Source: Nitrosopumilus sp. (GTDB taxonomy: Archaea > Thermoproteota > Nitrososphaeria > Nitrososphaerales > Nitrosopumilaceae). Taken from it: a stretch of 64,000 nt of DNA. Shown here piece by piece: positions 37,215 to 43,103 of this stretch. The position numbers were made by a program, and so were the translations under genes. Under the pieces are notes generated by a model, which ran no database searches, was not told the DNA's origin, and worked only from the letters and a program-made list of their open reading frames with translations. Position 1 is the stretch's first letter; the number at the start of each line of letters is the position of its first letter. The stretch is from positions 1,568,001 through 1,632,000 of the forward strand of contig OZ244732.1 in NCBI GenBank assembly GCA_965219345.1, in the 5' to 3' direction.

Positions 37215-37882
37215 AACAACTCATCTCAAAACCCTACAATACATCAAAAATGATGCAATGTTGACAAATGCCAGATAGTTTTCTGCGATTCTTTCATATC
37301 GAATTCTTGTTCTGTGAAAGCCATTCTTCAGCCAGTCAAAGAACCGCTCCACTACAAACCTGGTCTTGTTGTAATTGCCTTGCAGATTATTTTTCAGTGC
37401 CAGTTTAGAATTATTCCTGTAGGGGATACAGCAACCAATTCCATGACATCTGAGATAATTTCTAATGTATGCGGCATCGTAACCCTTGTCAGCATAGCAT
37501 GTTACAACTTGCTGAATCATGGAATCATCACCTGCAAAATCTGAGATTGATTCTATCACGTCAATGAATTTTGTGGAATCATGCTCGTTTGCGGAACTGA
37601 TTACAATGGATATCGGCAAGCCGTTTTGTTCTACCGCAACATGCAGTTTTGTGCCTAGAATCTTCTTAAATCCGTCATATCCTAGTTTGTTGCCACTTCT
37701 TCTTTACCGTGAATGGATGAAGAGTCAACTGATATCTTTTGCAGATTGATCTTATCTTGCCTGTGTGCTGATTGAATCGCACATCTGAAAACCTTCTTCC
37801 AAATCCCTTTTTGTTGCCAGGAGTTTAATCTTCTGCTTGCGGTAGAATCATCGCCGTATTGTCTTGGCATCTCACCCCATCA
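37215..37882 (-). mobile_element. IS5 family remnant, 5'-truncated, split over two frames
   Basis: WGEMPRQYG, SVDSSSI, GYDGFKKILGTKLHVAV, ADKGYD, RFVVERFF, RYER. Confidence 0.85.
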
Positions 37883-38015
37883 GCATCCTTTCTGCAAACT
37901 CACGGGCGCCGTCTTCGGTGTTGGGGTACTGCCCCCTCTCGAGAACTCTTCCCCTGCCGTCCACTATGCAGTAGTCGCACTTTCTCTTTGCAATGTCTAT
38001 TCCTATGCTGTTCAT
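37872..38015 (-). pseudogene. IS110 family recombinase N-terminal fragment (47 aa)
   Basis: MNSIGIDIAKRKCDYCIVDGRGRVLERGQYPNT carries the first DEDD motif (GID.AK); RBS AGGAGGTGA upstream. Confidence 0.8.
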
Positions 38016-38192
38016 CCTATCCTATCACCTCCTTTCGGATGTGTTGACGGATCGGAAGCTGCAAGCACCCATCATGGCGCGAAGCCCAATTACACAGCAG
38101 CTCGGATTGCCCCATTCATAACTGAGGGCGCGAAGCCCAAACGAAATAAGGGGTCGATCCATCACAGCTACTGCGCAGGGGTGGTTATCATG

Positions 38193-38284
38193 GTATGAGG
38201 TCACGTCCCCCTTGCAGATAGGCACGGAAACGCTTTGAACCGTTCGAATTTACGCCTATCATGAAGGTACAGGTGACCTCATAC
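38193..38284. mobile_element. 92 bp MITE
   Basis: 12 bp TIR GTATGAGGTCAC/GTGACCTCATAC; 8 bp TSD TTATCATG at 38185-38192 and 38285-38292; empty site present in copy B. Confidence 0.92.
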
Positions 38285-38442
38285 TTATCATGTGTTCATA
38301 ACTGAATAAAGAGATAATCCAATATACTTGCAGGCGTCGCGCATTACAATGCATTCTGGCATGTCAGATTCAGGCGTTAGAAGATCCTCATCTACCTAGC
38401 TTACCAAAGTTTATACCGTCATTGATGCCAAGTTAGCTACTC

Positions 38443-39357
38443 TTGGGTTATGATGATCTTTATCCACTTGATTTATCAAAATGCTTCAAGGACTGGCTTT
38501 ATCGGCATTCCCGCCTACGCGCGTTTTACGTGGATATAGTGTACAGGCAGACCGCGTTTCGGAGGATCACCGCGCCACTGAGGGCGATGCCGGATTTTGT
38601 CATCATAGGCGCGCAAAAGTCTGGGACGACTTCGCTGTATGATTATATCACAAGTCACCCCTCAGTGGCGCGCGCGCGCTATAAGGAGGTGCATTATTTT
38701 TCCCTGCGGCACAAGTATGGCAAGCTGTGGTACCGTTCCAACTTCCAGACCAACTTCTCGCGGCGCCGCTTTTACGAGAAGACAGGGCAAAAGCTCCTCA
38801 GCGGGGAGGCCAGCCCGTACTATCTCTTCCACCCTGCAGTCCCGGACAGGATGAAGGCTGTCCTGCCAGATGTGAAGCTCATCGTGATCTTGCGCAACCC
38901 CGTTGACCGCGCATACTCCCACTACCACCACACATCAAGGAAGAACCAAGAACCGTTGTCGTTTGAGGAGGCCATCAGGGCAGAGGAGGCGCGGTGCACG
39001 GGGGAGAGGGAGCGACTGCTCAGGGATCCGGACTTTGTCCCCCTACACTACCGCAACCACTCGTACCTTTCCAGAGGCGTCTACGCCGACCAGCTGGAAA
39101 ACTGGTTCAAGTACTATGGCAGGGAACAGTTCTTGATCCTGGCCACTGAAGACCTCCGCAAGGATCCGCAGCGTACACTGGACCGCGTCTTTGACTTTCT
39201 GGGGGCAACTCCATTACGTGTCGGCGGCTTGAGGGATCGCAATGTTGGAGACTATAAGGAGATGGGCAAGGAGACGCGCAAATTCCTGATCGAGTACTTT
39301 AGGCCATACAACCAGAGGCTGTACAAGATGCTGCATCGCAGCTTTGATTGGAACTAG
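38443..39357 (+). CDS. PAPS-dependent sulfotransferase (heparan sulfate 3-O-ST-like)
   Basis: PDFVIIGAQKSGTTSL (5'-PSB), EASPYY, LRNPVDRAYS (3'-PB). Confidence 0.92.
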   Translation: MGYDDLYPLDLSKCFKDWLYRHSRLRAFYVDIVYRQTAFRRITAPLRAMPDFVIIGAQKSGTTSLYDYITSHPSVARARYKEVHYFSLRHKYGKLWYRSNFQTNFSRRRFYEKTGQKLLSGEASPYYLFHPAVPDRMKAVLPDVKLIVILRNPVDRAYSHYHHTSRKNQEPLSFEEAIRAEEARCTGERERLLRDPDFVPLHYRNHSYLSRGVYADQLENWFKYYGREQFLILATEDLRKDPQRTLDRVFDFLGATPLRVGGLRDRNVGDYKEMGKETRKFLIEYFRPYNQRLYKMLHRSFDWN

Positions 39358-39638
39358 CGTGGTGGCGTAGTTTCCGTGGCTCATAATTAATCACAAAAAC
39401 GCCAACAATTACCAACCAAACGATCTAGATCACAGCAGGACTCACATACACACACACACTGCATGAGAATCGAATATTCAGCGATACCGGCAGGGGACAA
39501 GTTCCTGCCGGGCACGAGCAGGGCGTACCTACGCAGGTCATCTTCCGTTCTGGCGGTGCCAGAACCGGCAGACTCATCCATCTCATCTTCTGGATTCTTG
39601 GATCCTTGCACATATGATTACTAATCTCTTATACACGC

Positions 39639-40502
39639 TCAAGATATTATCGCTGATTCCACATAGATGGCAGTGTCCGTGTTCCTTAGTAGCGAGCGTT
39701 TCATGCCTAGTCGGCCAAGAACTTTCTCTTTCTGATACCTTTTGTTCCACGAGGCCACTTGGTCGTCCTTGCATTCAACTCCGGAGGACAGATATCCTTT
39801 GATGTAGTGCAAATTCCATCTTCTGATTGTTACAAGTATTACGAACCATAGTGAGAACCCCCTTTGTTTGAACAATTTGCCACGCCGTTCTATCGTCTGC
39901 CTGTTGTAGTTGGTGCCAATATTTCGTTTGAACTGCATAGGTATGTCGGTGTATACTGCAGATCGAAACCCTGTGAGGGAGGCATGTGTGATAAGGGATG
40001 CGCCGTTCAGGTGGGAGGTTCTAGAGGGGTGTTGGAATTTTTTCAACCATTTGACGTCAACTATCGCGCCGGATTCGCCCACAAGTATGAGCTTGTCTTG
40101 TAGGTCTTGGCCGCACGCTATGACCACCCCGTCACGGCGCATCCTTTTTGTGATTTCGCCAATATACGAATTGGAAAGGACTGTGTCTCCATCTACGCAT
40201 ATTACGTAGTCAGTCCCCCCCCCCACGATTGCCTCGTTGAAGAGACTTTGCCGTAGTTCGAAAAAACGTCCAGACAGATAATCGTGTGGATAAGGGTCGT
40301 GGTGGGTGATTTCGATTCCACTTATAGAATCAAGTATTTCCTTTGTGCCGTCGGTGGATCCGTCATTGGCTACCAATATACGTGAGGCGGGAGGATCCTG
40401 CGCTTTTATGGCATCAATTACGCTCCGTATGTGGTTCTCTTCGTTTCGGATCACAAGAAATGCATTCCACGTGTAACTACCTGACTGCATTTTACTACAC
40501 AT
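39639..40502 (-). CDS. Glycosyltransferase family 2
   Basis: RNEE, NDGSTDGT, VDGD; G10 tract in the coding strand. Confidence 0.85.
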   Translation of the reverse strand: MCSKMQSGSYTWNAFLVIRNEENHIRSVIDAIKAQDPPASRILVANDGSTDGTKEILDSISGIEITHHDPYPHDYLSGRFFELRQSLFNEAIVGGGTDYVICVDGDTVLSNSYIGEITKRMRRDGVVIACGQDLQDKLILVGESGAIVDVKWLKKFQHPSRTSHLNGASLITHASLTGFRSAVYTDIPMQFKRNIGTNYNRQTIERRGKLFKQRGFSLWFVILVTIRRWNLHYIKGYLSSGVECKDDQVASWNKRYQKEKVLGRLGMKRSLLRNTDTAIYVESAIIS

Positions 40503-40841
40503 AAGATGCTGTCAACAGTTAAATATTTTATGCAAAGACTGAGGTTGGTGCGTAATTCTAGTCTATCCCGTTCACACACATCTCCCGCCATGTCTTCACC
40601 GACGGATTTTCCGGGTGTGTCAGGCCTTCAGCTGCCTTGTACACATCGTTTCCCAGTAGATGGACCCGTCTAGGCGCATGCCGCGCGTGCTAGGTCGCCA
40701 TAGGTCGGTATCGGTATCCGGAGCTCAATCCAGTCGAGATCCAGTGGCGCGGGGAGTTTACATCCTTTCACTGTATACCAACCGTTAACGCGCAAGAATC
40801 GATCATCATGATCAGTGATAAGCATAGGACTTATCGGATGT

Positions 40842-41765
40842 TTATCTATCCCAATCAAAACTGCATCGTAGCAGTTTGGATAGTCTCTTGTTGTGAGGTT
40901 TAAAGTACTCGATTAGGAATTTGCGCGTCTCTTCGCTCATCTTCTCATAGTTTCCAATGTTAAGGGATTTCGTTTTTTCTACTTGAAAAGAAGGCACTCC
41001 CAAGAAATCAAAGACTTTATCTAGCGTCTGCTGTCGATTTTCACGAAGATCTTCTGCAGTCAAAATCAAAAACTTTTCTCTGCCATAGTACTTGAACCAG
41101 TTTTCCAGCTGATCGACGTAAATGCCATTGGCAAGGCACAAATTAGTAGAATCTCTGTTGTGAATATAATCTGGATCTGTTATCATACGTTTCCTTTCTC
41201 TGACGCGCTGTTCTTCTTCCAACTTGATGACTTTCTCAAATGAGATTGATTCTCTATTCAATCTCAATAACATATGATAGTGAGAGTACGCCCGATCAAC
41301 TGGATTGCGCAAAATCACGATCAGTTTTACGTCAGGCAAGAGCGCTTTCATCCTGCTTGGGGCGGCCTGCCAAAAAAGGTAGTTTGGACTAGCTTCTCCA
41401 CTGAGGAGTTTTTTCTTTGTTTTTTTGTAGAAATAGTACCTTTGTATCTTGGTTGGAAAATTAGAACGGTACCACAGTTTGCCAAATCTATATCCAGTAG
41501 AAAAATATTTTAGCTCTTTTGCAGGTGTGGGAACAATATCTGGATGTTTAACAATAAAATCATACAACGATGTGGTTCCGGATTTCTGAGCGCCGATAAT
41601 AACAAAATCAGGCAATTCCCTTAAGGGCGAGGTAATTATTTGAAACCTACCCGAGTTGCGCGCTTTCGGGTCCGTACCTATCCTTGGGTTATAGAATACG
41701 TGCAAAAGAGGGTGCCGATGCAACCACTTACTTGCATTCTCCCTGAGATATCCCAATATTGACAC
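40842..41765 (-). CDS. PAPS-dependent sulfotransferase, paralog of 38443-39357
   Basis: PDFVIIGAQKSGTTSL, EASPNY, LRNPVDRAYS. Confidence 0.92.
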   Translation of the reverse strand: MSILGYLRENASKWLHRHPLLHVFYNPRIGTDPKARNSGRFQIITSPLRELPDFVIIGAQKSGTTSLYDFIVKHPDIVPTPAKELKYFSTGYRFGKLWYRSNFPTKIQRYYFYKKTKKKLLSGEASPNYLFWQAAPSRMKALLPDVKLIVILRNPVDRAYSHYHMLLRLNRESISFEKVIKLEEEQRVRERKRMITDPDYIHNRDSTNLCLANGIYVDQLENWFKYYGREKFLILTAEDLRENRQQTLDKVFDFLGVPSFQVEKTKSLNIGNYEKMSEETRKFLIEYFKPHNKRLSKLLRCSFDWDR

Positions 41766-41800
41766 TAATCAATCGATGTTATTTGTATGTCGCGCGTACG

Positions 41801-42010
41801 TCAGTTATGAACACATGATAACCACCCCCTGCGCAGTAGTTGTGATGGATCGACCCCTTATTTCGTCTGGGCTTCGCGCCCTCAGTTATGAATGGGGCAA
41901 TCCGAGCTGCTGTGTAATTGAGCTTCGCGCCATGATGGGTGCTTGCAGCTTCCGATCCGTCAACACATCCAAAAGGAGGTGATAGGATAGGATGAACAGC
42001 ATAGGAATAG
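41801..42010 (+). mobile_element. IS110 left end, copy B, cut after MNSIGI by IS6
   Basis: About 210 bp inverted copy of the 37997-38305 region; ATG at 41992. Confidence 0.85.
41838..41970 (+). ncRNA. Putative IS110 bridge-RNA-like non-coding RNA
   Basis: Outer stem GATGGATCG/CGATCCGTC encloses two stem/internal-loop/hairpin modules; lies upstream of the IS110 ORF; folded by eye. Confidence 0.65.
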
Positions 42011-42512
42011 GGTTCTGTTGGGTTATGGGGATATAGAATGAAATATGAATTTTCTCCTAATTAAAAAATCATACCTACACAGAATCCTTGCTTAAACTTG
42101 CATTCTGAATTATTGTCTTCCATTTGTTTAATCCATCAACCTCAATCATAGAGGCCTGTGCTGGAGTTTGACCCTTCAATGCTCCGTGCTTTTTTGTAAA
42201 ATTATAGTAGACTCTCATGCTATCCGAAATACCAGTATCCATCTTTTTGAGACCTCTGAATACCTTTTCCCTGTCCCTGATTTCACCGTTTAATCTTTCC
42301 ATCTTGTTGTTGTTCATGTCACCTTGCAGATGAATATGCCTAATGTGGTTGGTATCACTGCCAAAGATTTTCCTGCTTGACTTCATGTAAGCTTGCAAAC
42401 CATCTGTTATGAAATTGCGTGGATTCTTGCCAGCTTGTAATTTTGTTAATCTCAATAGGCTGTCTGCATTATGATGAAATTTGTTATCTGCAATCTCTTT
42501 TTTATCTCCCAA
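42011..42512 (-). mobile_element. IS6 family remnant (3' part and TIR)
   Basis: GGTTCTGTTG end; ITDGLQAY, NNKMERLN, YYNF, TPAQ. Confidence 0.8.
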
Positions 42513-42529
42513 TTCAACTATTTTTTTTC

Positions 42530-43103
42530 GCCTACTAATTTTTGAAGATGAGATGTGATCACATCATCAGTAAATCCAAGAATGTCTGTAATTTTACTTA
42601 AACTAATCTGATTTCCAGCTTTCAAAATAAAATTAATACGGTCTATTACTTTTTCTGCTGCTTTTGATTCAGCTTCTTTCAGCATCTTAACTTGTTCTGA
42701 TTCTTTTGAAAAGAAAGTTGCTCTTTTTCAATTGTATCAATAATACTTTTTAGATCATCAAATCGTATTGACTTGTCAAGATAGCGGCATACTCCGTACG
42801 AATAAGTTCTTTTATTCCTGCATCTTCCTTCTCGGTAGCAGTTTCCAAAATTACTCGCACATCTGGTTGAATTTCAATCATCTGTGTCAAAACTGAACGT
42901 GCATCCATGTCGGGTAATATAAAATCAAGTAATACAAATGGTTGTTTATTGTTAGTAATTAGTTCATTGAATGTATGAACCGCACCAGAACCTGTCTCAC
43001 AAATATGATTATCAGTATATCCTAATTTTTCCAAATAATTTTTTAAAAGAATACCAACAGCAGGGTTATCCTCTACAATCAGAACACTCTCTTTTGAGCT
43101 CAT
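42530..43103 (-). pseudogene. Response regulator receiver protein, frameshifted near 42795
   Basis: LIVEDN, LLDFILPD; expected tail YLDKSIRFDDLK is in another frame. Confidence 0.7.

Follow-up and report, generated by a model that had tools for sequence, protein, structure and literature searches.

Positions 41801-41991 of the window (the whole 64,000-nt stretch of DNA analysed here) lie between a sulfotransferase gene on the minus strand and an IS240/IS6-type remnant. They belong to one of two shortened, mutually inverted left-end copies of an IS110/IS1111-family element, which we call copies A and B (table 1). The two copies share arms of 185 nt that are 98% identical and an arm of 21 nt (pair I6) that is 100% identical. 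Both run into a Shine-Dalgarno-like sequence, an ATG and the N-terminus of an IS110 recombinase, of which 47 aa remain in copy A and six codons in copy B. The initial annotation made its reading depend on the downstream open reading frame being IS110, and this is borne out by copy A: its 47-aa remnant matches PF01548 (31.7 bits, cut-off 29) and shares 61% identity with the start of the protein in an intact relative (363 aa). Between the left junction of copy A and its subterminal repeat sits a short MITE-like insertion of 92 nt, for which copy B preserves the empty site at 41814-41821.

Table 1. Features of the two element copies, with window coordinates (LT, left target half-site; R1, covariance model described in the text).
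Feature	Position	Strand	Basis or remark
Copy B LT, TCAGTTA	41801..41807	+	Host/cassette DNA outside the element; equals the variable part of the module-1 3' strand, 41882-41888
Copy B left-junction core dinucleotide, TG	41808..41809	+	Concordance of junction core and target-loop core in relatives; empty sites
Copy B left-end fragment, cut after recombinase codon 6	41810..42010	+	98% identity to copy A; 70-84% to left ends of relatives
Left subterminal inverted repeat (CATGATAACCACCCCC...)	41814..41834	+	Complementary to the right end in intact relatives
Predicted bridge RNA core, outer stem P1 around both modules	41844..41961	+	Covariation; R1 164.6 bits
Module 1, predicted target-binding loop	41854..41897	+	5' strand 41858-41868; 3' strand 41882-41893; both hypervariable
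Module 2, predicted donor-binding loop	41905..41950	+	Loop-end covariation in relatives
Copy B Shine-Dalgarno-like GGAGGTGAT and first 6 recombinase codons (MNSIGI)	41976..42009	+	Conserved AAAGGAGGTGA followed by ATG in relatives
Copy A LT TCAGTTA (38305-38299) and core TG (38298-38297)	38297..38305	-	TCAGTTATGAA occurrences; pair I6 21-nt arm, 100%
Copy A left-end fragment with predicted bridge RNA and 47-aa recombinase remnant	37872..38296	-	R1 171.2 bits at 38017-38185; remnant 38015-37872 including stop
MITE-like insertion in copy A, 92 nt	38193..38284		12-bp perfect terminal inverted repeats (pair I5); 8-bp duplication CATGATAA

The stretch enclosed by the copies (38306-41800) is a 3.5-kb cassette encoding a sulfotransferase, a GT2 glycosyltransferase and a second sulfotransferase, with a GC content of 0.45-0.585. 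The two inverted left-end fragments stand on either side of it, each with its left target half-site turned towards the cassette. A search of the flanks for terminal inverted repeats of the cassette found none beyond the common 7-nt half-site. On their outer sides, the copies are abutted at their points of truncation by remnants of other insertion sequences: a frameshifted IS4/5-type remnant next to copy A (37224-37870, minus strand; PF01609, 59.8 bits) and the IS240/IS6-type remnant next to copy B (42011-42700, minus strand; PF13610, 30.3 bits). These two elements probably caused the loss of the remaining parts of copies A and B.

As first described, the loop at 41882-41892 is identical to 41801-41811, and these 11 nt are common to both copies. 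The sequence TCAGTTATGAA occurs four times in the window (41801-41811 and 41882-41892 on the plus strand, 38295-38305 and 38115-38125 on the minus strand), against a chance expectation of 0.10 in 64 kb and in 0/100 shuffles. Likewise, GCTTCGCGCC occurs four times against 0.01 expected, and TGGGCTTCGCGCC is present twice in copy A. The additional occurrences of TCAGTTATGAA and GCTTCGCGCC are explained by copy A, which runs on the minus strand from 38305 down to 37872.

In a DNA search of 400 Nitrosopumilaceae genomes, homologues were found in 34, at 70-84% identity over nearly the whole 210 nt (a related-locus search with one protein gave 13 loci; the DNA search gave far more). Pairs of copies within the same genome mark the limits of the elements, which measure 1.42-1.47 kb in Nitrosopumilaceae and in further Nitrososphaeria, and the intact elements encode a DEDD recombinase of 363-371 aa with PF01548 and PF02371 domains. 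The intact 363-aa protein scores 96.6 bits with PF01548, 75.4 bits with PF02371 and 223.8 bits with NF033542 ('IS110 family RNA-guided transposase'). The recombinase is distantly similar to the solved transposases of ISCro4 (E = 1e-15) and IS621 (8wt6, E = 5e-14; phmmer). Its genes are carried between a left end of ~190 nt and a right end of ~130 nt, with subterminal inverted repeats of ~10-19 bp. For example, in one relative (L040), ATGATAACCACCCCTGCGC in one subterminal region matches the reverse complement of GCGCCGGGGTGGTTAACAT in the other at 17/19 positions. These repeats served to locate the right ends of the relatives. Among plasmids searched by tblastn, the best protein relatives are haloarchaeal 'IS110 family transposases' at 31-34% identity, a generic name that does not separate IS110 from IS1111.

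All the stems, loops and repeats listed in the initial annotation are present on a direct read of the window. The outer stem pairs GATGGATCG (41844-41852) with CGATCCGTC (41953-41961) over 9 bp, including one G-U. Inside it, module 1 is formed by CCCC (41854-41857), the loop strand TTATTTCGTCT, GGGC (41869-41872), TTCGC, GCCC (41878-41881), the loop strand TCAGTTATGAAT and GGGG (41894-41897). Module 2 is closed by AGCTGC (41905-41910) and GCAGCT (41945-41950) and has an inner GC/GC stem. Taken alone, the sequence at this site gives a minimum free energy (MFE) no better than that of shuffled sequences (z = -1.77, with 10/200 shuffles equal). Neither strand is significant, and the MFE structure of the single sequence fails to reproduce the proposed one. 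Single-sequence folds were therefore not used as support for a bridge RNA.

The comparative evidence was drawn from an alignment (A1) made with MAFFT, unfitted to the structure, of 40 of the 41 left-end references (L054, whose donor loop is disrupted, was left out). From these 40 sequences RNAalifold predicts the proposed five helices, with compensatory changes in 15/26 pairs. In the proposed structure 93.5% of the cells are paired, compared to 28-49% when partners are slid by 1-3 columns, and 16/27 pairs have changed on both sides; 0/500 shuffles reach any of these measures. By the covariation analysis suggested in the initial annotation the fold is real, on comparison and not on any single-sequence fold. 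G-U pairs occur as U-G in 18 sequences (columns 30/165) and as G-U in 36 (columns 109/157). Since these fit the plus strand only, the RNA is placed on that strand and a minus-strand RNA is ruled out. In every copy the predicted RNA lies upstream of the recombinase gene and stops ~30 nt short of its start codon. The left subterminal repeat contains, ~25 nt ahead of P1, a conserved TA-rich motif that may be an archaeal TATA box.

A covariance model (R1) built from the 40-sequence alignment matches 21/151 sampled genomes of the class, three other families among them. To this model, 92 homologous copies were aligned, leaving out duplicate loci and L093, which comes from an unpublished genome (G077) counted only in the 34/400 and 21/151 tallies. 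Applied to two haloarchaeal loci and one Sphingobium locus, R1 found nothing significant (best E = 0.44). An Rfam scan of 37500-42500 returned no relevant family; the sole match, a snoRNA (E = 0.87) inside a sulfotransferase gene, is attributed to chance. The genome that carries the window has three other IS110-family loci (C1:72030-72205(-), 483809-483984(+) and 1486359-1486534(-)), whose genes are ~30% identical to the clade, with one intact at 358 aa. Weak R1 matches (about 22-27 bits) lie directly upstream of these three genes, in a distantly similar two-module RNA.

In alignments of the relatives, both loop strands of module 1 are hypervariable while module 2 is conserved. The variation in module 1 follows the insertion site. 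Here, 'top strand' is the strand on which the recombinase is sense. On the left, the 7 nt preceding the core in the 3' strand of module 1 agree with an element's own flank at 4.62/7 positions, versus 1.75 for the flanks of other elements (37 unique of 43 rows; 0/10000 permutations). Similarly, an element's own 7-mer (5 nt plus the core) is found exactly within 45 nt upstream in 45/87 cases, versus 38/7346 for the 7-mers of others, and with at most one mismatch in 73/87 versus 567/7346. On the right, the reverse complement of the 5' strand matches at 4.04/8 versus 2.23 positions (24 unique) and, in a larger set, at 3.40/6 versus 1.67 (30 unique), each with 0/10000 permutations; if G-U wobble is allowed, the match is 5.0/8. 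This right-side match is imperfect or absent in several relatives (0-2/6 in 10/30), partly because the right-end finder mislocated some ends. The mislocated ends were retained: L032, L033 and L044 in the right test on 24 unique elements and in the donor-loop test, and L017, L048, L107 and L118 in the right test on 30.

The relatives also provide cases of natural reprogramming. L049 and L050, from one genome, are 96% identical, yet have TAGTT and TAACTT, respectively, each loop matching its own flank. Subfamilies in another genome (G065) contain near-identical copies with different module-1 strands that match their own flanks. Across the relatives, the sequence at the LT position varies with the flank and not with the element. 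Two copies in one genome (G041) depart from the pattern, with a left flank that mismatches their own module-1 3' strand: L125 has a changed loop at the old site, and L127 the common loop at a different site. These may represent guide turnover after insertion or off-target events.

In one genome (G080), joining the left flank, a single TG and the right flank gives the predicted unoccupied site, which occurs 43 times at up to two mismatches, against 0 for the reversed control, and two of its elements (L045 and L046) sit in the predicted site split at the TG, with TG on both sides. A second genome (G014) has 11 unoccupied sites versus 2 in the control, and in 7/11 of them the next 28 nt are identical to those in the right flank of L059, which is occupied. 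Empty sites carry a single TG and occupied sites a TG at each side, which confirms an insertion geometry of LT-TG-(element)-TG-RT. Given the empty sites in these two genomes, the bases matched by module 1 are therefore target DNA. Together with the permutation tests, they establish the loop complementarity at collected insertion sites that had been proposed as a check on the guide function.

Carried over to the window, this geometry assigns 41801-41807 to the target and 41808-41809 to the core, and starts the element at 41810. The module-1 3' strand (41882-41893) corresponds to the left target, the core TG and the handshake bases AA(T), and the 5' strand (41858-41868) to the reverse complement of the core and right target. 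The 11-nt match had been taken for the element boundary. It consists instead of the LT TCAGTTA, the core TG and the first two element bases AA, and the boundary lies at 41808-41810 rather than at 41801. A role of the module-1 3' strand as donor guide, implied by that earlier view, is ruled out by the empty sites; the two copies share the 11 nt because both sit at guide-matching sites.

The targets of two sister elements, in G080 (L142-L161) and G014 (L166-L176), fall on the terminal inverted repeats of other repeated elements, of which they make up the outermost 10-18 nt; these occur as pairs ~63 nt apart and pairs 1.3-1.5 kb apart. With targets at the tips of other elements' terminal repeats, this IS clade preys on the ends of transposons and MITEs. 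In the IS1111 group, IS4321 and IS5075 reportedly insert in the same way, into the tips of the terminal inverted repeats of other transposons.

Module 2 is tied to the ends of the element itself. On its 3' strand, all 7/7 positions agree with the right-end tip and core, and this holds for four different tips (ATAGATG, ATAGGTG, ATGGATG and ATAGGAG), and its 5' strand covaries with the left-end start (3.85 vs 2.87 of 5; 0/10000). In copy B, the left-end start ACACA, read in reverse complement, corresponds to the module-2 5' strand (TGTGT...), and the 3' strand (..ATGGGTG..) is same-sense to the predicted right-end tip and core. That tip, ..CATGGG-TG for the window copies, is itself predicted from the guide. 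Module 2 thus appears to read the joined ends of the element around the shared core, and a circle junction of this form is predicted. The core agrees between the two sides: junction and target-loop 3' strand have the same core dinucleotide in 36/38 unique elements (33 TG and 3 AG). The 2 nt that follow the core in the module-1 3' strand equal the first 2 nt of the element in 30/38, including two cases of GA/GA, as expected for a handshake. In the donor loop, the two nucleotides following the core on the 3' strand of module 2 were compared by eye, uncounted, with the right target, and no systematic match was seen.

Based on this evidence, we read 41801-41991 as the non-coding 5' end of a dead insertion sequence of the IS110/IS1111 family that probably encodes, on the plus strand, a bridge RNA of ~120-170 nt (a probability of about 0.88). 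The archaeal IS110-family bridge RNA variant suggested by the initial annotation is thereby supported by comparative evidence, namely the covariation of the fold, of loop and flank, and of loop and element end, the natural reprogramming of near-identical copies, and the geometry of the empty sites. Judging from intact relatives, the RNA would bind the DEDD recombinase of the element and hold two DNAs. The module-1 3' strand, same-sense to the 4-7 nt left of the core and to the core TG, would pair with the bottom strand, its next two nucleotides forming a handshake that matches the first bases of the element. The 5' strand, complementary to the core and ~6 nt rightward, would pair with the top strand. 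Module 2 would do likewise for the excised element, reading its joined ends with a 3' strand equal to the right-end tip and core and a 5' strand complementary to the core and left-end start. Recombination at the shared TG would then insert the element and leave a TG on both sides. As for expression of the RNA, its binding by the recombinase and the chemistry, we infer them by homology to IS621 and ISEc11.

Published descriptions allow this layout to be placed among known bridge RNA and seekRNA systems. Like in IS621, the archaeal RNA lies in the left end, 5' of the DEDD recombinase gene. It has two stem/internal-loop modules with the target loop first and the donor loop second, and its loop strands pair with different DNA strands around a core common to all four guides (PMC11208160, PMC11208158). 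The 2-nt handshake positions 3' of the 3' strand also have their counterpart in the handshake guides of IS621 (PMC11208158). As in the IS110 group, a long left end goes with a short right end, but the subterminal inverted repeats (~10-19 bp) exceed the 2-3 bp of that group. There are further differences from IS621. [quoted passage not shown] In addition, the core is TG (AG in one subclade) instead of CT, the recombinase is distant, as the phmmer E-value above indicates, and the RNA matches no Rfam family.

The reversed order has a precedent in seekRNAs of the IS1111 type, in which the complement of the top strand precedes, on the 5' side, the match to the bottom strand (PMC11187229). Accordingly, the same-sense match of the 3' strand, which the initial annotation had set apart from IS621, does differ from IS621 but is not a new layout, having been described for the IS1111 types in that study. 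Also like the IS1111 group (ISEc11, ISKpn4 and ISPa11; PMC11187229), the archaeal clade combines long subterminal repeats (7-17 bp in IS1111 types), this guide order and natural reprogramming. [quoted passage not shown] The same source mentions exceptions, ISMtsp17 with an upstream non-coding region and ISHvo10 and ISAcp5 with long regions on both sides, which the clade resembles, by description only, in uniting IS1111-type features with an upstream non-coding region. Unlike many IS1111 orthologues, which are multi-loop (PMC11208160), the archaeal donor guides lie in a simple internal loop, and unlike the dissected IS1111 systems the hosts are Nitrososphaeria. In the literature covered, including a review and a survey of archaeal insertion sequences, we found no bridge RNA from Nitrososphaeria or Nitrosopumilaceae in the accessible text, and the supplements of PMC11187229 and PMC11208160 may place archaeal or upstream-RNA relatives of IS1111.

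Judged by the RNA and the repeats, the layout is a hybrid, in archaea, of the known IS110 and IS1111 layouts. By our own inference, the RNA-DNA complex can be the same as that of IS621 because of the twofold symmetry of DNA, the difference being which way the gene cargo faces with respect to the recombination sites. A bolder proposal would make the Nitrososphaeria elements a distinct class, defined by IS1111-type polarity, long repeats and a simple, 5'-encoded two-loop RNA that is driven by a TATA-like box inside the left subterminal repeat and is made from integrated or orphan copies and not from circles alone. In this proposal, orphan left ends would act as RNA-producing 'addresses' that let a related recombinase invert or move a cassette. 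We regard it as doubtful.

What the window copies themselves do today was considered in the light of the whole genome (1.91 Mb, GC 0.36), in which no further copy, no intact copy, no right-end remnant and no cognate recombinase were found. A search of this genome for an unoccupied target of the window guides gave none that was convincing; of the candidates, the best shows 2 mismatches over 18 nt and is unrepeated. A pattern scan of metagenomes with 20 nt of the module-1 3' strand found no intact copy with these guides, and its single match, inside a valyl-tRNA synthetase gene, is a chance match. Small defects are also apparent. The dinucleotide of the module-1 5' strand expected to pair with the core is TC in copy B and TT in copy A (CA, TA or CG in most relatives). 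A G-to-A change at 41921 introduces an A.C mismatch into the module-2 inner stem of copy B, and both copies have G.A at 41920/41932. Because they are without a recombinase gene and a right end and have these small defects, the copies are most likely inactive relics. We read them as relics of two guide-directed insertions that were afterwards truncated by other insertion sequences.

An alternative is that orphan bridge RNA genes are still expressed, and that a recombinase acting in trans inverts, excises or moves the 3.5-kb sulfotransferase/GT2 cassette. The arrangement invites this idea: the two inverted copies point their left ends at a cassette that is foreign by composition (GC 0.45-0.585 versus 0.36 for the genome), and the genome does hold one intact IS110-family recombinase, of 358 aa. 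That enzyme, however, is only 30% identical to the clade and has a very different upstream RNA of its own (R1 21.6-22.1 bits versus 165-171). Moreover, the genome has no donor site (right end), and the copies have loop and stem defects and, in one of them, a MITE. The same left-ends-inward architecture recurs in another genome (G347), where two identical intact copies with a 371-aa recombinase lie inverted around a 1.6-kb IS66-family element (L058, 1950-6470; PF03050, 80.6 bits). That arrangement lends the idea some support, but is accounted for by insertions close to each end of another IS. We consider the alternative improbable, and trans use of the window copies unlikely.

It is still less probable that the sequence is a cis-acting 5' UTR or DNA element (e.g. 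for translational control or as protein-binding repeats), in which the identity of loop and flank would reflect an internal copy of the terminus. A Shine-Dalgarno-like sequence and an ATG do follow directly downstream, and the repeated 11 nt might, in principle, be a direct repeat that binds protein. Yet the matching flank bases vary together with the loop between copies that are 96-98% identical, and they are present in unoccupied sites without the element. In addition, the other loop strand matches, in reverse complement and with G-U tolerated, the flank on the opposite side, and the compensatory changes and G-U pairs point to a plus-strand RNA. Finally, that a GC-rich palindromic patch in a foreign island simply repeats an 11-mer by chance, as an MFE z-score of just -1.77 might suggest, is hardly credible against four occurrences where 0.10 are expected, 92 homologous copies, and the covariation and permutation tests.

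Bridge (seek) RNAs program a recombinase for target and donor alike and are, to our knowledge, the only natural RNAs to do so. Those dissected so far come from bacteria and show two layouts, thought to be tied to the position of the RNA, which is upstream in IS110 and downstream in IS1111. The archaeal clade separates these traits, in that its predicted RNA is upstream and has two loops like that of IS621, while the polarity and the long subterminal repeats are of the IS1111 type, and this bears on how the RNA gene has moved between element ends in evolution. It also represents a compact system from mesophilic marine archaea (a 363-aa recombinase and a predicted RNA of ~170 nt), and offers many naturally reprogrammed guides and visible empty sites. 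In the genome studied here, that of a marine ammonia-oxidising archaeon, the two copies would be dead ends that mark a horizontally acquired sulfation/glycosylation cassette.
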